A DNA stretch of 64,000 bases, from the NCBI RefSeq assembly GCF_021028975.2, contig NC_059437.1, forward strand, positions 21,452,001-21,516,000, read 5' to 3'. The translations under genes and the position numbers were made by a program. Every line of letters starts with the position of its first letter. Within the stretch, counting starts at the first letter, position 1. This stretch comes from Sphaerodactylus townsendi (taxonomy: Eukaryota). Positions 23,001 through 63,183 of this stretch are shown here, piece after piece. Under the pieces are notes generated by a model, which was not told the origin of the DNA, did no database searches, and was given only the letters and a program-made list of their open reading frames with translations.

Positions 23001-26000
23001 CCTCTGCATCACAACCCTGGCAGTCCCCGGAGGTCACCCATCCAAATACAAGCCAGGGCTGACCCTGCTTAGTTTTTGAGATTTGACAAGATCAGGCTAG
23101 ACTGGAGCTATGCAGGTCAAGATAAAAACTAGTTACAAAAGTGATAAAATGTTGAACAATTTTAAAAATCCAAATTTGAGGCCTGCTTTGAGACTGCCTG
23201 TATAAAATGGCTCGACACCCTCCTTCAGTTGGCCCTAACACATTCACCATTCCTCAAAAGGCTGCATTTGAAAAGGACAGTAGTAATGGAGATGTCTTTT
23301 TAGGAAGCTTGTCTGTATTTAGTGATGTTTTTATTCAAAACCCAGTGTGGTGTGGTAGTTAAGCATTCAACTAATATCTGGGAGACTCAGGTTTAAATCC
23401 CCCATTCTGCCATGAAACTCTGATGGATGACATTAGGCTGATCACTCACTCTTAAATGCTTCTGTATCAGAGCACCTTGGTTCAATAATGCACAAAATAA
23501 TGATTTTGACAAAGGCAACATGATGTGATAATTCTTATATTCGTTTGAGACTATATTCTAATGTACAAGCACACAATTTTCTCAACCGCTGCACCTCAAC
23601 TGAACATACTAATATTTTTAGCCGAGACAGAATATACAGACAGATCTTCCAGCATCTCAGTATTTAAACCTTAGCAAAAATAAAGGACAGGAAAGAGAAA
23701 ACATTTTCTATTTCCAAAGCACAGCACAGAAGTAACTAAAGCACAGTCACAGCCAGCATCAGGAAAGTTGCTTATGGAGTACATTTATTTCCAAAAGCAG
23801 AAATAAGAAGAGGAGTTTGGATTTATATTCCCCCTTTCTCTCCTGTAGAGACTCAAAGGGGCTTACAATCTCCTTTCCCTTTTCCCCTCACAACAAACAC
23901 CCTGTGAGGTGGGTGGGGCTGAGAGCTCAGAAGAACTGTGACTAGCCCAAGGTCACCCAGCTGGCGTGTGTTAGAGTGCACAGGCTAATCTGAATTCGCC
24001 AGATAAGCCTCCACAACTCAAGTGGCAAAGCAGGGAATCAAACCCAGTTCCTCCAGATTAGAATGCACCTGCTCTTAATCACTACGCCACTGTTGCTCCT
24101 ATAAGGATAGAGTTCTTCCATGTAAACAAATAATCAGACTGTGGGTGCCTTTTCAATGTGTTTACAAAAATAAAGGACAAAATATCTTCTTGGATTAACC
24201 AGATACTGACTAATCTTGTCTCTTGCAAAGAGGCAGGAAATTACATGACCATGTTAGCTATGCACCTACATGCCCCTGAGACTAATGAGATACAGAGCAC
24301 CAGGCACAAGAATGCTCCCATTCAACAGTGGCTCCTAGGGAAAGAGAACCCTCTCCCAGAAAATTGATTTCCACTGGCATTCTGGGCTGTCCTGGGAGAG
24401 GGAAGGCAGGAACATTGTACACCACAAACGGAAGTCCCTGCACCTGCAGAAACAAGCATCTGGAGTCACTCCATAATCAGATTTCATTCTGTGCTTTCTG
24501 CCTTTTCTGGCCTCTCAAACCCCTTTTTAAAAACCGTCCCACATAAAATGAGTGAAAAGTGAGGATTCCCTTAATGCTTATGAAAAAGTGGGCTCTGGTC
24601 CACAGAAGTTTATGGTGGCGTTAAAAAAAAGTGTCAAGTCTTTAAAGTGTCATAGGACTCCTGTTTATTTTCTATCATGATTTTCAGAAAAACCCATATT
24701 GCACTAGTATGGAATGGGGAAGACAAATCGTGGCACACGTGGCAACGGCCACGCTCCAGATCACTTGCATGGCACCTAGGGCCAGATCTTTGTCCAAGCA
24801 ATCAAAGCACTAGGAATACTGCTGGGTTTGGTGGTGTAGCAAAAGGCAAATCTTGGCTTTCTCCTCTCATCATTACTCAGACTTGCACAGTCACCAGCTG
24901 AGTTTAAACCAAATCCCTAAGATGCTTTTAGCATTGCCTTGGTTGCAATTTCAAGGTGGAAAGAAGGACAGACATCTACAGCAGTTATGGGCTTCTTTGT
25001 TCTTTTTCTCATTTATATTGTTAAATGGAAAATAAAAAGTAGAGATTTCATAAACCACTTCACCGTATGTTCCATCACAAGGTTCACGATGAACATAGGA
25101 ACACTTTCTTGAGTGGGTACATTTTTATGTAAAAAGAGGAGGTTTTGTCTCTTGAGAGACTGATTTTAATCAAGCGTAAACTCTCATCATTAATTTAGGG
25201 TTTCTCTCTCTCACTCCAAGCTTCTCTGATTGGGGGAGGGAGGGTGCTAGGAAGTTCAGGACATATAAGTTTACCCAGAACCAAGCAAAAGGAATAGGGC
25301 AAGTTCAAGTATAAATGACACGGCTCCAAATAAACCCAACATTTTTAAAGGCAGCTCCTTAGAAAACTGTCACCGCTTCTTGGGTGTGTACAGCATTTAC
25401 TTACCAATGACTTTAAATTCACTACTTGCTAACCCAGTGATGAGCTGTGTAAAAATCTTCCTATGCGTGGCTGACCATATTGTGCAAAATTTATTCCATG
25501 GATGGTAGCAAGACAAATCATGACACCTGGCATCCAGCTTACCTGTGCTATAAAACCCTGCTTGAGCCAGCTGCTCCTTGTTAACCGAATACCTCCACGT
25601 TATAAAGGACCTGAGTCGTGCTTCGTAACTTGACATAGATGGGTTTTTTGGAAGCCTGGGATCATGTACGTCACTTATATTCAGTTCCGCACTGCTCGGT
25701 TGATTTGGGGCACTTTCAACATTCCCGACATCATGGCCAAGGACAAACAGACACCTAGGGAAGTGGCGCCTGTGTTCTGACCAGGCCTGGTCACCAGGTT
25801 CCCAAGTTCCCAGCTTGCCTCCACAACAGAAGCACTCAACTTGATCGGCGATTCCGGCATAATAGAAACCTGCACTGGCTAAGTCGGTTGGCATTACAGG
25901 AGCGTAGGCAGGCCAGTTACGGAAAGATTCCAGCCTGGCTTCTTCACTACACATGGCAGGAGTCCTGGGATACAGGCTGCCCGAAAGATCCACCACCTGC

Positions 26001-26425
26001 CTAGTTCTTAGCAGATAATCTGCAGAGAGGTCAGAGGAGAAAGCAGAGGACTGTTGGCTACTAGCATTTGCAAGGCGGCCATCGGCTCTCTGCTGAACAT
26101 TCGGAAGAGCAGAACACGCCCCATTCCTACAACAGTTCATGCCATTAATAAACGCACAGTTTGGAGAGACAGTTTTATGCCTCCCGGCTGCAGTGTCCCC
26201 GGGCTGCCATCCTTCTATGGTTGCGTGGCAACTGAAGCACCTGACTTTGTCCCTTTCACCAGTGTAGAAGAAGCCAGCTCGTGCAAGACTTAAGGCAGAA
26301 ACGGGACAAAAATTTGGGAACGTGGTAAACGTCTGCAGTCGGGAGCATTCTTTCGCCAGCTCTTGGTCAGATTCACTATTGTGGTTGGCACCAGCTGTGC
26401 AGTTATTTGGTCCATTACACGTCAT
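13096..26425 (-). CDS. XIAP: XIAP (E3 ubiquitin ligase / inhibitor of apoptosis), complete spliced CDS: join(26425-25543, 21653-21554, 16730-16652, 15416-15386, 14450-14250, 13289-13096) = 1488 nt, 495 aa
   Basis: BIR1-BIR2-BIR3-UBA-RING architecture; all junctions GT-AG with consistent phases; exon sizes 100/79/201/194 match mammalian XIAP as recalled; neighbour is THOC2. Confidence 0.97.
13627..13746. mobile_element. Related palindromic hAT MITE, left end lost
   Basis: GGAACTACAATTCCCATCAGCC...GGCTGATGGGAATTGTAGTTCC core. Confidence 0.8.
14007..14040. repeat. (GT)n microsatellite
   Basis: Directly visible. Confidence 0.95.
14250..14450 (-). CDS. XIAP: XIAP exon 6 (UBA domain, MGF motif)
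   Basis: 201 nt; [10 protein letters not shown]...[10 protein letters not shown]; AG/GT boundaries. Confidence 0.95.
14759..14887. mobile_element. Harbinger-like MITE, TSD AAA
   Basis: TIR GGCCCCTTCCGCAC / GTGCGGAATGAGCC. Confidence 0.85.
15386..15416 (-). CDS. XIAP: XIAP exon 5 ([10 protein letters not shown] linker)
   Basis: 31 nt; acceptor ttttttccccctcaaAG, donor AAG|GTAAGT; phase 0 to 1, exactly as needed to join exons 4 and 6. Confidence 0.88.
15533..15670. other. Assembly gap (138 N)
   Basis: N run in XIAP intron 4, adjacent to an L2 3' end. Confidence 0.99.
15690..16345 (-). mobile_element. 3' fragment of the same L2 family
   Basis: ORF 15862-16389 is highly similar to the C-terminus of ORF 52646-53806. 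Confidence 0.9.
16652..16730 (-). CDS. XIAP: XIAP exon 4 ([26 protein letters not shown])
   Basis: 79 nt; acceptor ttttcctAG, donor GTGAGT; last Zn-ligand Cys of BIR3. Confidence 0.95.
16930..17390 (-). mobile_element. Old L2 3' part (separated from 19561-20400 by a later insertion)
   Basis: [26 protein letters not shown]. Confidence 0.75.
17405..19546 (-). mobile_element. L1-derived ORF1-only (HAL1-like) retroelement, decayed
   Basis: ORF1-like fragments 18444-18662 (coiled coil) and 17896-18255 (RDIII.F..K...IM); AATAAA plus poly-A at 17426-17405; degenerate 14-bp TSD; no ORF2. Confidence 0.6.
18577..18695 (-). mobile_element. Penelope-like element end with a mutated hammerhead motif
   Basis: Reverse complement CTGAAGATGCCAGCCACAGATGCAGGC-AAAAC-GTTAGG; same family as 60623-60887. 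Confidence 0.75.
19561..20400 (-). mobile_element. Old L2 RT part
   Basis: [17 protein letters not shown]...YQYADD. Confidence 0.8.
21554..21653 (-). CDS. XIAP: XIAP exon 3 (BIR3 core [34 protein letters not shown])
   Basis: 100 nt; acceptor tttttctccacAG, donor GTAAGG. Confidence 0.96.
21929..22673. mobile_element. Non-autonomous hAT element, TIR TAGGYTTGG, 8-bp TSD GYATCAAC
   Basis: TSD at 21921-21928 and 22674-22681; internal inverted repeats and subterminal repeats. Confidence 0.8.
23808..24100 (-). mobile_element. tRNA-derived, L2-tailed squamate SINE (Squam3-like)
   Basis: A-box TGGCGTAGTGATTAAG, B-box GTTTGATTCC, (TTC) tail; similar to 46005-46280. Confidence 0.8.
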
Positions 26426-26447
26426 TCCTCCTTCCGGAGCCAGGTAA
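25543..26447 (-). CDS. XIAP: XIAP exon 2 (22 nt UTR, ATG at 26425; BIR1, BIR2, start of BIR3)
   Basis: ORF MTCNG...[10 protein letters not shown]...CFSC...H...C; acceptor ttcacAG (AG at 26449-26448), donor CAG|GTAAGC. Confidence 0.96.
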
Positions 26448-28794
26448 CTGTGAATGTATTATACAAGAATATATTAATTAGAAATCAATAATCAGAAATT
26501 ATTTTATGCTTATTTAACACAGCACAGTGACAAATGTCTACCCCCATTCAGAATAGCTTGAGCATGTATTACGTTATAACTGAATTCACTGCATTAAACT
26601 GGGTAGGAAAGAAAAGAAGGAAATATGCTAAAATGCTGCACAGAAACATTTACAGTATGGGAAGAAGACTCTGTAAAAACATAATTAGCTAGAGAAACAT
26701 TAACCATGACTTAAGCTGGCATCTTATCTATATTGTATCGCTATACATTTATTATGTTTTATTATCGTATTGCATATGAACATAAGGGTGTGTCAAAGAA
26801 TAAGTGATGGCATAAAGAAAAGAAGAGTTGCAACCCTAAGGGCACTTTTCTGGGAAGAAGCCCTACTGCATAACATGGGACTTACTCCCAAGGAAACCTG
26901 TTAAGGATACTTTCCTAACAGCATTCTTCGACATACTATAATATGCAGCGATCTTGGGAAGTGGTAGTAACATAACTAAAGTAAACCAGATTTATCTGGT
27001 GAACCAGATTTGTTTCTCCACTCCTACATTCTTGTGGGTAAGCTTGGGAATACTCAGTTCCTCAAAACTCTCTCAGCCCCACCTACCTCACAAGGTTTCT
27101 GGTGTGGGGAGAGGAAGGGAAAGTAGCCTGCGCCACCTGCTGCCTCTCAGATCCCCATGGAGTCCAAAAGCAGGCATATTTTTCAGGTTTGGTTTTAATA
27201 ACCCAAAAATATTCAGGAAAACTCGAAAAAGCAGATATGTAGTATCAGCTTTTCAAGGGGCGGGGGTTCAAAAATTTCTGCGTCTAACAAACCCCTCAAA
27301 AAGTTTTGACTGTCAGTCGTCATCCAGAGCAGGACTACTTTAAAAATGTGATTACTGTTGAGATTCTCCAATGTGTAATGTGTCCAAACCACGAATGAAG
27401 CTTTCAATTTGCGGAAACATTAAGCCTGCACAGCTGCCAATCAAGATAGTGAATTCAAAAGCATTTTATTCTGATATAGCCAACTGACTTCAGTGGAATT
27501 GATCTGGAGATTTATGTATCAAGCTGTAATCACCTTATCTGAAAAGCATACCTTCTATACTTATGTGTTTAATGTTTTAAAGACTGGGCTTGGCCAGATA
27601 AACAACTGGGAGAAGAACATTCAACAGCTGTTTTTGTGTTATAAAGTTCCACATGCGCTTTATGTATTTACAAGGTTGTAACTGCTTTCCCATTGCCAGA
27701 TGCACAAACCAATGATTGGTTTTTAAAAACAAAACAGCTAAAACAACAAAACAGCTAAGCTTCAATATTTATTCAGCTAACTAGTTGGTTAATCAATTAA
27801 ATATCCTTTCAGTAACAATGTGCCCTCAACGAAACAGGTAATTTAAAAAATAGGTATTACAAAAAAACCCCATGAAAAGTAGAATTTTAGAAAAGGCATT
27901 CCTGAAGATCTCTTGCGTTGGAAGGAACGCCTCTTCTAAGATGACTACGATAGAATAATGTTTCATATTAACCAGTTGCATTATGAACTGTAATGCACTG
28001 TATCTATAGTGCTGCCAATTGTTCAAAACACTTTACATGCTTTCTTACTATACCTCAACCATGAAAGACATGTTAGTTGAAGCAAGATCTACTCATTGGA
28101 CCTTGTGATTCCAAGATCAGCCATTACACTGCACTTGCTTTTTGCTGCTATTCAATTTCCTTGCGTAAATTCAAATGTATTAACCAATACCAATTAACAC
28201 AGCCCTTCAGTCTGATGCTACAAATGCAGACAGCAAAATAATAGCTCCACAGTTACAACAGAAAAACAAAACAAATATTTTGGCACAACAAGCTGTATTG
28301 CTAAAAAAAGGCTGTAGATTCCAACTGAAGATGGACCACAAGCTGGAAAATTGTTTCAATGCTCCATCAAATAACCTGCCACGTTAACAACAACACAAAA
28401 CAGACTACAGCAGCAAATAAGTTGGGCGGCAAAGTAGCTATACGAGAGCAGTAAAATGTACAAGCCACCAATTAAAAAACACACAACAAAGATGGAGAAA
28501 CAATTTGCTAATGGTGTATTTGGAAGACTTGTTTGAGGGCAGTAATTTAACTCTGCATTCTGTTAGATTTTAAAAAATTAGATTCACAGGCAAAAGATGC
28601 CAGGGGTGGAGTCTTGTATAGTCTGCAAGTGAGTACAGCAGGGGTGGGCAACCAAAGGGTCTAAAAAGGTTTTGACCTCTACCCATGAACGTATTGATGC
28701 ACCAGCAACAAAAAAAGGGGAGGGGACCCGATATGGGCTGTACCTGGACACTGCTGGAACATGTCAAAACCCAGTATTGCCACCAGTATTGCAT

Positions 28795-30370: not shown

Positions 30371-31779
30371 GATCCAACCCTGGACATAACAGGTAGCTGT
30401 TTAGGTCAGGGTGATGATGACTGACATAAGTAATGCCTGTCGCCTTCTCTTGCACTGTTGACTTCAGCAGTGCTGCCAGGGCAAGGCTGGCTGGAGATGT
30501 GCTCCTGGATGCCAAGCAAAACAGTCTGGTGTACTACTGCAGGCACAATGTTAGAGGATGCCTACCCTTCGCCCCTGCTCTGCAGCAATGCTCAACTATC
30601 AGCTCTTCAGTTCTGCAGACCAGATGTCACACCAGTCCACTATACTTGGGACTGCCCATGCAAATCAACCTTGGATTTTTTAAAAAAGTACAAGTGACCA
30701 TAATGCAGTAGGAAAGAAATGTACATCATAGCATGCTCTAGCCCAGGGGTGCTGAACTCATTTGTTACAAGGACCAGATATGACATTAATGTAACTTGGT
30801 CAGCCGGACCTGGACTAGCAAGGTGTATACATGTGTGTAGCTACCTCAGTTGGTGAGATTGGGAGCAAGAAGGGGTGTTTGTCTCAGCTAGCTCACTGGC
30901 CTGGTCAGCCCTCTCAAGGATACGCATACTGATAGCCCTACTGTAACCTGTACTCAGGACTCACAACACACTTGTCAAAAAAAGCTGGTCCTCGCCCTGC
31001 TAATTTCTTCACATTTCAGTTCTATGCACCTTTACTTGGACATATTCTACTGAAGTCATTACAACTTTCTAGATAAGTCATGTACAGATGACTGCAAACT
31101 TCAGTTCTCATTTTAGTGGTGCATGAAAGCCATTTGTCTGCAGAAAAAAAGTATCGCATATTCCAATCCGGAGTCCAGGCCTGATGAGTCATACCAAGCA
31201 CCCAGCATTCCATTTGTACCAGGAAGACATCAGCAGGCATGAAAGCGAAAGGGAAAGCCATTGCCTGCAACTGGAGCTCAGTTTCCTTCTAACCTTTGCA
31301 CCTTTTGAAAGACCTGTCCTTGGGAAAAAAAACCCTACTTCCCTTTTAAAGCTATCTTAACCAAATGATAATCACTGTGGAATCAAATGCACTCTCAATC
31401 AAGTCCAGAAACTTAGCATTTGTTAAAGATACTGCAGATCTTTCCTAGCAAGACAGATTGTAGTAGTTATGGACAACAGGTCATGCAGGAGCTTTCAAGT
31501 AACACGCTTGCAATTAGGGTACTAGCTTTCTCAAGGTGAAATTCCCTCTTCAGTTATTCCGTTCTAAATCCAAGAACTTTCCACTCTATTCCAAGAACTT
31601 GTGAGCTATTCCACTCTAAATCGAAGTTGTGGAGTAACTTGTGAGTTATTCCACTCTGAATCCAAGAACTTGTGAGAACTTGTGGAGTCACTCAGTTTAG
31701 GAATGGCTAGTGATCTATGGGCATAAATAAATAATTCTATTGTAATTATAGTAGGGGATTAATACCAAGGGAACCGGTC

Positions 31780-32720
31780 AGAGCCGAAGACATGGTTGAC
31801 ACACGAGGAGAACCGCACACGGGAAGGCGACCCATGACACGCATTTGAAAACACCCTCGTTAGGTCTGTGTAAACGCTGAAAACACGTGCCTTACGACGA
31901 GAGACATGAATCTATCAAATGACAGACTCGCGTGCACGCAACAATCTTCTCCTGCAACCTTCATTCTGACCGCCCCAGACGATACCCAGGGAGGAATACC
32001 GCCCTCCCTCTCCAATATCTGCAAAAACAGAAAAGGAATTACTGGAGGCATGTGCCGGAGGGCGTGCAAATGGGATCCTCTTTTTTCCTCCACCCTGCAA
32101 CCAAACGGGAGGAAAGTGCACAGTCGCACCTTGCAGGCGAACACATTTTTCTAGCAGGGTATGAGCTCGGGCGAGTCACGGCTCATGTGGACTAACGAGG
32201 AGAGAGGTCCATAGCAGCTCTTACGGGGGAAGGAGCAAGCGATGCCCTCCGCCCTACTAAGCGATTGCTTAAGTGTGGGTCAACCTTGCCTTTACCTGCA
32301 AGGTTGTTCGTTCCCTTCCAGCAACCACTGAGCCCTAGCACTAGGGCAGAAACGTTTGCATTCCCCTTCCCTGCAAAAAGCGGACCGCCCTGGCCGGGAA
32401 CTCACCGCGCAGTCCTGCTTCCGAGGAGCCCCTCCGCCACCAGCTGCCCAAACTGGCTCAGGGAGGTGAGAAAATGGCGGCGCTTGTGAACTTGGGAACG
32501 TCTGACCGGAGCGGAGGGAGAACCGAAGCGCCCCCGCACGGCCTTGGAGAGGAGCCACAACATAGCCGAGTGACACCTGGTGGCGGAACTGCGCAACTAC
32601 CAGGCGCGAATTCGCATCATCTGGTTCACACGGCGAACGGGGAGGGGCGGGGGATTAAAAATGACCAGAGCCTGAATGGGCTGAAAGGATGGCCCCGCTT
32701 CAACGACAAGGGGAGAACCA
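31780..32720. promoter_or_regulatory. CpG island / XIAP promoter with YY1 motif (AAAATGGCGGC, 32471-32481) and GC box (GGGGAGGGGCGGGGG, ~32639-32653)
   Basis: High CpG density against a CpG-depleted background; TATA-less motif set. Confidence 0.75.
32406..32620 (-). other. XIAP: Putative non-coding exon 1 of XIAP (5' end approximate)
   Basis: GCG|GTGAGT donor (GT at 32405-32404) inside the CpG island; alternative donor CAG|GTAAAG at 32295. Confidence 0.6.
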
Positions 32721-32969
32721 GAAGGTTCACGTTGGAATGTTTTCTTATGTTTAACATGCCAGTTGGGCTCTTTTTCTGTTTGCTTGGGCGTTTGTGATGT
32801 GAAAGAATGCTGAAAAATGGAAGCATCCCGCTCGAGGGTTCTGAAAGAATTATGGGGAACATCCAAACATATAACTGACTTCTGAGTAGACCTTAAGATT
32901 GCTCCTAAAATTAAATCTGCCACCTCTTGGCTTGGCCACCTCATTCTCTGGCCACCAGGGACCACAGTG

Positions 32970-34206: not shown

Positions 34207-36280
34207 AAACTTTTATACCGCCCCATCCTCTAGGGGCTCTGGGCGGTGATCTTTGGGGAGGGTGTCCTAAAATATCCTAAAATATCAGCATTTCTGGCAT
34301 TGCTTAATTAACTGTTTTAAAACAAATCAGGGTTCAATTTTTGTTTCACCGCTTTCACTGTGTGTGTAAAATGCCGTCAAGTTGCAACTGACTTATGGCC
34401 ACCAAGTAGTGTTTTCAAGGCAAGAGACTAACCGCCCAATCCAAAGGGGGTAGAGGCAAATTGGACTATGGAGCCGGCACGGGGCCATGCTGACACATTT
34501 GCCCACCTTGCCAGTGTAAGTGGCACTTAGGCAGGTGGGGCGGGCAAACTGGACACCCAACCTGGAAATGCTTGGTTCCTGGAGAGCTGCGCTGGTCTAA
34601 ATCTGGCTGCCGGTACAGCTGGGGACAGGCTAGGGGCATTCATAGGGGTCGAGCCAACATCAGTCTGCGCTGGTCTAAATCTGGCTGCTGGTACAGCTGG
34701 GGGCAGGCTAGGGGCATTCCTACGGGTCAAACCAACATCACCTAGGCTTTCAAGCTGGGAACACCAACCTAGGCGCCTCAAACCAAAAGGATGGCATAAT
34801 TCTGTTTTGCCCTTTTGAGGGATTTCCAGGTGGCTGGTTTTTTTTCTTTTCTGCCTCCCCATGCTGCCTGAAAGTCCTTTAGATGTGGCGCTGTCCCAGA
34901 TTGCCCCAGCCTCTTAATATGGCTGCCTACCTGCTCTAGATGTGGTTTGCTATTGCCTTCCTCTGCATAGAGACCCTGGAATTCCTTGATCATCAAGTAG
35001 TAACTAGGGCTAGCCCTGCTTAGCTTCTGAGATCTCATGAGATCAGGCTAGCCTGGGCCATCCAGGTCAGGGTCCCATTGCTCTTAGAGATTAACAAAAA
35101 GCCCAAGTTACTCATGAATCTCTCCCACAGATCTCACTTCTTCTTCTTCTGAGACTTCCAGCCAGAGAAATATGATCTGCTTGCCTATGCCTATGCATAG
35201 AAAAATACCAGTCTTCTCCTTCTCCAAGTTTGATTTATTACACATGTGGTTATTTCTGATTGGTTTCAACATAAGTGCAATCAGCAGGTACATATGAGAT
35301 ACAGCAAGTCAAGAAGGCTGATCACAACTCTTAAAAAACCAATTAATCTAGCCTTTCTCTGTGTTTCAACTAACTACTGAAGATGAAGGTAGATCTAACC
35401 AACGGAATTTAAGGTCAGTTGAACAAGTGTGTAATCTCTCAATCAACCTGCAAATTCAGCATGAAAAAAGTTGATATCATTGTGACTGCCAGACCAACTG
35501 GAGGTCGGCAACATTAGTGTGGGATAATACCACACCTTCTCAACTATACATCTCTCCCACAGCTAGAGAAGTCTTATCCTAACTATGTTTTCTTGGATGT
35601 TAATTCCACTGATTTCAAATTGGACTGATATCCAAATAAATCAATTAGAATTAAGACTGCAGTCTTCATGCAGTTTGTACGCTGTGCTAATTTCAACCAT
35701 ACTCAAAATAAGATAAGCTGCAAATCTTGCAATCCTGTGCACGCTTATATAGGAGTTATTTGCACTGAGCATACTTAAAAGTACATGAGACTGACTGCAC
35801 AGGAATCAAAGTCCTACTCATTGTCCATGGGAGGTGGGGGTGGGGGAGTTCAAAATGTATTACATTCAGGAAATCATTTCTGTTCTAATTACAGTGTACC
35901 AAAATTTTATGTTTGTTGTGAAGGAGTCTGGAAAGTGTTCTAGGTACATGCTAAAGAGTCCCTTCTCACAACTTTTGCACATGCTTCCATGTTGCAGAGC
36001 TAACATCAGAAACCTTGGTCACATGGGAACAGCCATGGTTATTCCTGTGCTAGTATCAGGAAGGTGCAATACAAGTGCAGAGAGGAGCAAGCATGAATCA
36101 ACTCTTTTGTTATTACCTGAGCACTCTAGTAAGGACCTCATAAGGGCCAATATTGTACCCTAAAACACATCCAGTACTCTGTGGGGAAGAGGGTGAGTTT
36201 GTGACAAACCAGCCCTATTCAGTTGTTAAATGGACATACAAACATCCTGAAAGTACATTAATAATTATTTCTGTATACCT

Positions 36281-36421
36281 GGCCCCTTCCGCACATGCAA
36301 AATAATGCGTTTTCAAACCACTTTCACAACTGTTTGCAAGTGGATTTTGCTATTCCGCACAGCTTCAAAGAGCACTGAAAGCAGTTTGAAAGTGCATTAT
36401 TCTGCATGTGCGGAATGAGCC
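36281..36421. mobile_element. Harbinger-like MITE, TSD CCT
   Basis: Long TIRs, 3-bp TSD, near-identical to 61565-61705. Confidence 0.88.
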
Positions 36422-36841
36422 CCTGACAGGTTGTGAACATCAGCCTCATGTCAGGTGGAGCTTGGCGGCAAGCCAACAGTATAAAGCTGGAGCCAGTCAG
36501 CCCCAGCTGCTCAGTTTGATCCTGGCTTCAGCGAGGCTTGGATCAAGCTTTAAATTGAAGGATCAAAGCCTGCTGTTTAAAGCTGGACCTATGGAGTTGA
36601 GGCCAGCATCAAATGGGTCTACGCTCCTGAGCTGCACATGGAGTTCAGGGGTGGGGCAACTTTGGTTCTTTTGCCCTGCTTGTAGCGCTCCTGGGGCAAT
36701 TTGATGGACCATTGCGTAGAACAGGACGCAGCAGGGATGCACTTCCGGGCTGAAGCAGATGTTGCTCACCTCTGAGTACCGCTACCCTAAATCAAGAACC
36801 CAAGGCCTGAAACAAGAACCCAAGGTGGGAGAGAGAGGGAA

Positions 36842-36872
<31 letters not shown>

Positions 36873-37800
36873 CCCCAAAGAAAGCATGCCTCTTCCAGGG
36901 GACACACACACACACCCTCCCCAAAGAAAGCATGCCTCTTCTAGGGAACACACACACACCCTCCCCGAAGAAAGCATGCCTCTTCCAGGGGACACACACA
37001 CACACCCTCCCCAAAGAAAGCATGCCTCTTCCAGGGGACACACACACACACCCTCCCCAAAGAAAGCATGCCTCTTCCAGGGGACACACACACACACCCT
37101 CCCCAAAGAAAGCATGCCTCTTCCAGGGGACACACACACATACCCTCCCCAAAGAAAGCATGCCTCTTCTAGGGAACACACACACACCCTCCCCGAAGAA
37201 AGCATGCCTCTTCCAGGGGACACACACACACACCCTCCCCAAAGAAAGCATGCCTCTTCTAGGGAACACACACACACCCTCCCCAAAGAAAGCATGCCTC
37301 TTCCAGGGGACACACACACACACCCTCCCCGAAGAAAGCATGCCTCTTCTAGGAAACACACACACACACCCTCCCCGAAGAAAGCACTCTCTTCTAGGGG
37401 ACACAGACACACCCTCCCCGAAGAAAGCATGTCTCTTGTAAGGGACACACACACGCACACCAAAGAAAGCATGCCTCTTCTAGGGGACACAGTTACACCC
37501 TCCCCGAAGACACCATGTCTCTTGTAGGGGACACACACACCTCCCCAAAGAAAGCATGCCTCTTCTAAGGGACACAGATACACCCTCCCGGAAGACAGCA
37601 TGTCTCTTGTAGGGGACACACACACCTCCCCAAAGAAAGAATGCCTCTTCTAGGGGACACACACACACACACCCTCCCCGAAGACAGAATGTCTCTTGTA
37701 AGGGACACACAAACACACACACACACACACCCTCCCCGAAGACAACATGTCTCTTTCAGGGGACACCCACAATCTCGCCGGGGAACGCCTGCCTCTTCTA
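36842..37800. repeat. Minisatellite, ~21 units of ~40-46 bp: (CA)n-CCCTCCCCRAAGAAAGCATGCCTCTTCYAGGGR
   Basis: Directly visible tandem array, homogeneous on the left and degenerate toward the THOC2 promoter. Confidence 0.97.
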
Positions 37801-37964
37801 GGACCGCGCTCCTCGCCGCCGCTGCTCTCTCCCGGTGTCTGAAAGACGCTCAAAGGGCAGCCGGCCCCGGCGCTCCCGTCATGCTCCGCGCGGCCGCCCC
37901 GTCGTCCCTTCCGCCCTCAGGCCTGCCTCTCGCGCATCCGGGCTCTCAGCGCCACACGGGGAAG

Positions 37965-63183
<25,219 letters not shown>

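Follow-up and report, generated by a model that had tools for sequence, protein, structure and literature searches.

A CA-containing promoter minisatellite with 14 p53-type half-sites beside THOC2 in Sphaerodactylus townsendi, probably an ordinary fast-changing repeat

The tandem array directly upstream of THOC2 in Sphaerodactylus townsendi, which was analysed within a window of 64,000 nucleotides (the whole stretch of DNA under study), is best explained, with a probability of roughly 0.7, as an ordinary single-locus, polar, CA-containing promoter minisatellite in which a chance half-site was multiplied by recent expansion, likely without p53 control. An ordinary fast-changing repeat is the most likely reading because the half-sites copy one motif, no full p53 site is present, and larger arrays of a control motif exist. 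The promoter-edge sequence beside a CA tract may have been duplicated first, and slippage or unequal exchange would then have added approximately 11 near-identical units at the left, promoter-distal end. Contact of p53-family proteins with the lone half-sites would be brief at most, so that THOC2 would still be driven by its CpG island as a housekeeping gene.

The locus and its gene context

The array (36842-37810) opens with a (CA)14 tract, after which come 21 tandem units anchored on a common core, and Tandem Repeats Finder calls a repeat of period 46 with 85% matches at 36856-37718. The core anchoring (36870-37810) bears out the approximately 21 units given in the preliminary description, and the array does lie between the two promoters named there, approximately 155 bp before the THOC2 ATG (37965), with the CpG island of XIAP approximately 4.2 kb away. 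The features are as follows.

36842-36869, no strand: (CA)14 microsatellite at the array's left end; the longest alternating purine-pyrimidine run (28 bp)
36870-37369, plus strand: units 1-11, a homogeneous block that is likely a recent expansion; units of 44-46 bp, mean core identity 0.95, 11 perfect half-sites
37370-37810, plus strand: units 12-21, a diverged block that grades into the promoter; 3 of 10 half-sites perfect
36882-37561, no strand: 14 perfect RRRCWWGYYY decamers, starting at 36882, 36928, 36972, 37018, 37064, 37110, 37156, 37200, 37246, 37290, 37336, 37425, 37467, and 37552
37811-37964, plus strand: CpG-island stretch from the array to the start codon; CpG observed/expected 0.82-0.85
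37965-38041, plus strand: first coding exon of THOC2, with a GTGAGT donor directly after it
25397-26458, minus strand: open reading frame with the BIR-domain exon of XIAP (BIR domain match, E 1.9e-51)
approximately 31500-32750, minus strand: CpG-island-like stretch with a donor-like GTGAGT at 32400-32405 (minus strand)

The peptide that starts at the ATG at 37965 is one that we take to be the N-terminus of THOC2, and THOC2_N Pfam matches follow downstream on the plus strand (51058-51204 and 59231-59413). The stretch between the array and this ATG probably comprises the THOC2 core promoter and 5' UTR, with a predicted transcription start, and the CpG-island-like stretch on the other side is the putative XIAP promoter with a non-coding exon 1. 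The array adjoins the THOC2 island, and across it CpG observed/expected drops from 0.82 to 0.1-0.26. A YY1-type motif, AAGATGGCGGC, spans the THOC2 start codon (37962-37972), and another, AAAATGGCGGC, lies in the XIAP island (approximately 32472-32482); YY1-type motifs occur at such places in housekeeping promoters.

A coding role for the array was considered and rejected, as a stop codon at 37566 lies in frame with the THOC2 ATG and before it, and the reading frames hold only low-complexity repeats. If transcribed, the plus strand of 36842-37800 would carry RBFOX and hnRNP L motifs, in the form of 15 GCAUG words and CA runs, and 19 AUGs. Two further tandem duplications, of 20 bp (36786-36825, directly left of the array) and of 78 bp (34587-34740, nearer XIAP), indicate that locally duplicated sequence is frequent in this intergenic region. 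A MITE-like element of 141 bp with 56-bp inverted arms that are 80% complementary lies 420 bp left of the array (36281-36421).

Unit structure and p53-type half-sites

Each unit comprises a core of approximately 32 bp and a CA spacer, and the units follow each other head to tail with lengths of 38-58 bp (typically approximately 45 bp), i.e., within the 10-60 bp of minisatellites and VNTRs. An exact search for RRRCWWGYYY recovered all 14 of the p53-type half-sites previously described, 13 of them AAGCATGCCT and one AAGCATGTCT, so that 14 of the 21 units hold a perfect decamer, always with a CATG centre; 19 further half-sites are scattered through the rest of the window. The pitch of 44-46 bp attributed to them holds for the first 11 starts, but the last three intervals (89, 42, and 85 bp) are irregular because broken units intervene. 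By chance, a perfect half-site arises in 1.0% of shuffled units (200,000 trials) and one with a CATG core in 0.19%; among 62,671 46-mers taken from the remaining window and circularised, the respective values are 1.4% and 0.37%. In a tandem array, any motif in the unit is multiplied along with it, and the 14 half-sites thus count as one event, not 14.

The two blocks differ in how the decamer has fared. It is present and invariant in 11 of 11 units of the homogeneous block, while four other columns vary (too few variants for testing), and this invariance, together with the best core, CATG, in all 14 half-sites, speaks against the ordinary reading. In units 12-21, the half-site is broken in seven of 10 (the core C or G is lost in three, and unit 12 has a one-base deletion), and the mean core identity across units 13-21 is 0.81. 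Differences per column in units 12-21 amount to 0.21 within the decamer versus 0.14 outside it, which indicates that the decamer is not spared in the units nearest to the promoter; distinct alleles number 10 in the 10 decamer columns versus 19 in the 22 other columns.

A canonical p53 element is taken here as two decamers with a spacer of 0-13 bp (in practice 0-2) and at most approximately 3-4 mismatches. No such element is formed by any of the 14 half-sites, for which the best partner at a spacer of 0-1 has six mismatches. Within 13 bp, a partner with at most three mismatches was found for one of the 14 (three mismatches, spacer 8), and the nearest perfect partner is 32 bp away, the spacers between perfect half-sites being 32-36 bp, or 75-79 bp across broken units. 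Three-quarter sites, in which a perfect quarter-site abuts the half-site, are likewise absent (0 of 14). Fourteen of the 21 units fall into the half-site class of p53retriever (a perfect decamer with an AT centre), which is grade 2 of 5 for CATG half-sites in a scheme that, as described, ignores clusters (PMC4470028).

Half-site clusters elsewhere in the genome

Three CATG half-sites 25-45 bp apart gave 26 matches at 13 loci genome-wide, nine of them in the THOC2 array, which with its 14 sites is the largest tight cluster among these loci (the next have nine and six). This rank, the position beside a real promoter, and the yield of the reversed pattern (10 matches vs. 26) are evidence against the ordinary reading. 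However, YYYCATGRRR, which is not a p53 site, is a fairer control than the reversed pattern, since it retains CATG in the middle and exchanges only the flanks. It gave 90 matches, and the 50 matches listed comprise 11 loci with clusters of 33, 22, and 17 copies; CpG-island-like windows were seen at six of the 11 control stretches among the matches listed versus four of the 13 half-site loci, and two control stretches are longer. The proposal that the array is designed for a p53 response therefore fares poorly: it has no paired or three-quarter site, seven of 10 older half-sites are broken, and the control motif yields more and larger arrays.

Among the matches listed, the control arrays with most copies are L051 1461-2953 (33 copies, period 44), L047 1478-2110 (22 copies, period 48), and L046 1445-2354 (17 copies), the last lying approximately 0.6-0.8 kb from CpG-island-like sequence. 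L042 2570-3226 is a perfect 16-bp, almost all-C repeat of at least 657 bp and may be an assembly artefact. Two of the half-site loci fit p53 rules better than the THOC2 array. L020 1409-1643 (G000:C1, approximately 2478082) is an 18-bp fuzzy repeat with nine perfect half-sites and seven spacers of 8 bp, closer than the THOC2 array to the p53-responsive repeats of the mouse, with no CpG island within 1.5 kb; L024 1491-1601 (G000:C2, approximately 129990050) is a 15-bp repeat with five perfect half-sites, two pairs of which are 5 bp apart. A 37-bp minisatellite at L028 1394-2805 (G000:C6, approximately 112879200) has 38 copies and 16 perfect CATG half-sites, and a long, CpG-rich 21-bp array (L033 1483-3091 and L034 1-2247, G000:C11) has 18-19 half-sites per 3-kb stretch, with two three-quarter sites in each of the two stretches.

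Is the array a weak p53-family element?

Among the alternatives, it is conceivable, though unlikely, that each 45-bp unit seats a p53 tetramer half-specifically, or a p63 tetramer on the in-register pair CATG-N6-C(C/T)AG, and that 11-14 such weak sites jointly exert a modest influence on THOC2, specific to stress or to epithelium and larger with more copies. One observation in its favour was overlooked in the preliminary description: besides the CATG cores (14 of 14), a second C..G core stands in exact register (C4, G7, C14, and G17) in 12 of the 14 half-sites and in unit 21, compared with none of the 19 half-sites elsewhere in the window. This, too, counts against the ordinary reading, although the C..G-N6-C..G pattern alone is found 2.6 times per kb. 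The same four positions mark p63 elements according to Riege et al. 2020 (PMC7735755). Their table contains, among the matches listed, eight human p63 elements that share the 11-mer CATGCCTCTTC in either orientation, and one shares 14 bases with the TAG-type units, so that the inner flank is tolerated. However, positions 14 and 17 are in register within flanks that do not fit the consensus, and the base after the second core is a pyrimidine in eight of eight comparable human elements among the matches listed but G in 12 of 12 units. CTTCTAGGG, CTTCCAGGG, and their complements do not occur among the matches listed for this table, whereas CTTCTAG and CTTCCAG occur at least 12 and at least 17 times, respectively. 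The second core of the unit is thus a near miss, fitting p63 elements in its core bases but departing from them in the outer flank, and it gives the bolder variant described below its most favourable form.

Proteins that could occupy such sites appear to be encoded. A P53-domain search of the genome identified two p53-family loci (L035-L040, G000:C16 and C8), which we take, from their peptides, to be a p73-like and a p63-like gene; none of the 10 candidates scored was TP53-like, which does not show that such a locus is missing.

Published work on half-sites points in both directions. Tetramers are described as binding single half-sites with lower stability (PMC7528078), half-specific p53 binding is reported at 20-bp spacers (PMC6696488), and species-specific, repeat-borne p53 control is known in the mouse (PMC3386156), all of which favour a weak p53-family element. 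According to Jordan et al. 2008 (PMC2518093), lone half-sites gave 4-6-fold induction of a reporter with overexpressed p53, compared with 35-fold for a full site; this induction and the disregard of clusters by the grading tool are further points against the ordinary reading. The same source indicates that p53 no longer acts on half-sites as a pair once they are more than approximately 3 bp apart, and that in yeast lone half-sites reach 2.4-10% of the activity of a full site, at high p53 only. Verfaillie et al. (PMC4937571) report that TP53 binds double sites with spacer 0, not single half-sites, and that clusters are not characteristic; half-sites and spaced sites underlie 1.1-5.1% of p53 peaks in Riege et al. 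2020 (PMC7735755), and fewer than 8% of even full motifs recruit p53 according to a review (PMC7498329). Synergy with copy number, on which an additive effect on THOC2 would depend, is described in the consulted part of PMC10570033 for full 20-bp sites with spacers of 4-14 bp only. The decay of half-sites in the promoter-proximal units also argues against a weak p53-family element.

Five supplementary files of a census of human p53 targets (PMC5511239), as far as their contents were covered, contain neither THOC2 nor XIAP, and CDKN1A is found in three of them. No paper on this locus, on regulation of THOC2 by p53 (judged by title and opening of the abstract), or on p53-binding promoter minisatellites or VNTRs emerged from the literature searched, and among the matches listed for the XIAP promoter and p53, none is titled on direct activation by p53. 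For the proposed action on XIAP, nothing speaks beyond the distance of 4.2 kb.

Single locus, copy number, and age

The unit pattern had 13 matches in the genome, and all 13 are inside the THOC2 array, as expected of a single-locus minisatellite. A dispersed element or transposon tail as the source of the unit was rejected, as neither the pattern scan nor a DNA search ignoring common words gave a match outside the locus.

Fourteen public runs contain part of the stretch, and four of them (X3, X4, X5, and X8) were compared. The 230 promoter-side bases were recovered in one piece with no differences in X3 (organism A), two in X4 (organism B), and six in X5 (organism C), and each of these runs has further unit-bearing contigs; for X8 (organism D), no contigs were recovered for the stretch, which is no proof of absence. 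X3 comes from the same organism and is perhaps related to the source of the assembly, and the three informative runs derive from two studies. Relative to the flank, the summed contig depth on one unit is 45x in X3, 8.8x in X4, and 8.1x in X5, although depth of this kind does not equal copy number. Simulated 31-mer unitigs (haploid and unsimplified) gave 43x for 21 units, 8x for units 12-21 alone, and 9x with one more. The unit count of the assembly therefore looks right, and the array is estimated at approximately 21 units in the same organism and approximately 10 in relatives B and C. In the single same-organism run X3, in which depth is similar, one junction is at least one letter off the window.

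Since depth fits 21 units here and approximately 10 in the two relatives, the homogeneous block, which has 11 of the 14 half-sites, looks recently amplified and is apparently lacking in both of them; this also weakens the case for a weak p53-family element. The array's end units were found in both B and C, and in organism C the decamer is perfect in one unit whereas the core of another is broken. The comparison favours a changeable copy number, which differs between lineages in the manner of a VNTR and appears to change fast, although these contig-derived counts are approximate. Human minisatellites are reported to gain units at one end (PMC3356730).

A bolder variant of p53-family control would draw on the same data: a lineage-specific doubling may have laid 11 p53-family docking units at a 45-bp pitch on the THOC2 promoter, each combining a perfect CATG half-site with the second core in register, on which p63 or half-specifically bound p53 tetramers would load in proportion to copy number, making mRNA export stress- or skin-responsive in this species and not in its close relatives. 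This is speculative and improbable. An equally doubtful explanation is an effect of length that is independent of p53, in which the array would act as an expression VNTR that sets the border of the CpG island, the placement or spacing of nucleosomes, or the binding of other factors to the C-rich and CA parts. The abutting island and the drop in CpG observed/expected across the array agree with it, as does the link between VNTR length and nearby expression in humans (PMC8024321), but the reported base rate is low (163 of 10,264 loci genotyped). The few patterns tried for other factors revealed no further strong motif, with one TTC-N3-GAA and no EBF-type site. In addition, the doubling of length between close relatives suggests that the array is tolerated.

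DNA structure and integrity of the assembly

It had also been suggested that the array forms cruciforms or Z-DNA. An imperfect palindromic outline of the unit is indeed present, but its longest perfect arms are 5 bp, whereas cruciforms call for near-perfect long arms with a short loop. For single units 1, 2, and 13, five folds showed no advantage over shuffled sequences (z from -1.2 to +0.1), and a hairpin instead of duplex would cost 33-39 kcal/mol per unit core in a crude estimate that omits junction and supercoiling terms. The cruciform element is thus not sustained, and cruciforms at the array are unlikely. On the other side, unit 20 folds at z -2.9, and the single strand of a stretch of two neighbouring units reaches -12.3 kcal/mol (z -3.8, with none of 200 shuffles as good); single strands can therefore pair between units, and such pairing may help slippage. 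The CA runs inside the array are short (10-18 bp), apart from a 28-bp one at the left end, and short CA runs generally do not convert readily to Z-DNA. Taken together, a structural element that acts by cruciform extrusion or CA-run Z-DNA under transcription-driven supercoiling between the divergent promoters is very improbable, despite the two-unit fold, unit 20, and the 28-bp run. A G-quadruplex or i-motif was also rejected, as the array is below the usual thresholds, with no canonical G-quadruplex and a G4Hunter magnitude of at most 1.32. The G-rich start of THOC2 intron 1 (38040-38400), with G4Hunter values of up to 2.28, makes a better quadruplex candidate than the array does.

Assembly errors are common where repeat units are nearly identical, but an expansion artefact as the source of the homogeneous block is scarcely credible, as units 1-11 show interleaved variants at four columns and the depth of X3, though this run is perhaps related to the assembly's source, is that expected of 21 units.

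Comparison with known systems

The PIG3 microsatellite, proposed earlier as a precedent, reportedly consists of abutting quarter-sites in its (TGYCC)n units, and it is therefore a poor precedent for the THOC2 array, in which quarter-site pairs are isolated by 32-36 bp. The likeness is confined to a repeat-encoded, p53-type promoter sequence with variable copy number (as cited in PMC3386156). Closer precedents are the fuzzy repeats of the mouse described by Simeonova et al. 2012 (Rbl2, Ncoa1, and Klhl26; PMC3386156). Like them, the THOC2 array is a poorly conserved tandem repeat with a cluster of many perfect half-sites near a start site, within -10/+5 kb. However, the elements of Simeonova et al. 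are paired, with a CNWG-N6-19-CNWR core and a matrix score above 10.5 (PMC3386156). This core geometry fits 13 of the 14 THOC2 half-sites by eye, with 6-7 mismatches in the partner. In the mouse repeats, half-sites are dense (seven in 117 bp at Rbl2) and make up scored pairs with spacers of 0-13 bp, with proof by ChIP and reporter (PMC3386156), whereas the THOC2 array has one half-site per 45 bp and partner decamers with 6-8 mismatches. The half-site elements of Jordan et al. 2008 (PMC2518093) resemble single THOC2 units in their perfect decamer and CATG core; they are described as weak, acting only at high p53 or with a partner factor, and the THOC2 array differs from them by its 45-bp pitch.

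In its build, the THOC2 array is akin to the polar GC-rich minisatellites MS32, MS205, and MS31A (PMC3356730) and to expression VNTRs (PMC8024321), with which it shares a single locus, variant units of 40-60 bp, the gain of units at one end, and a position beside a promoter. It differs from them in having a compound unit with a 32-bp core and a (CA)n spacer.

The THOC2 array is thus a caution against counting the copies of a motif in a tandem array as separate events, and a reminder that control motifs can give bigger arrays. The paper on p53 grading leaves aside whether many unpaired half-sites act additively (PMC4470028), and the approximately 10 versus 21 units in close relatives form a natural series for this question. 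If unpaired half-sites were additive, the p53/p63 network would extend, differently from species to species, to promoter VNTRs that carry lone half-sites; and if a doubling did lay down docking units for the p53 family, the THOC2 locus would amount to a natural experiment on whether half-sites far apart have additive effects.
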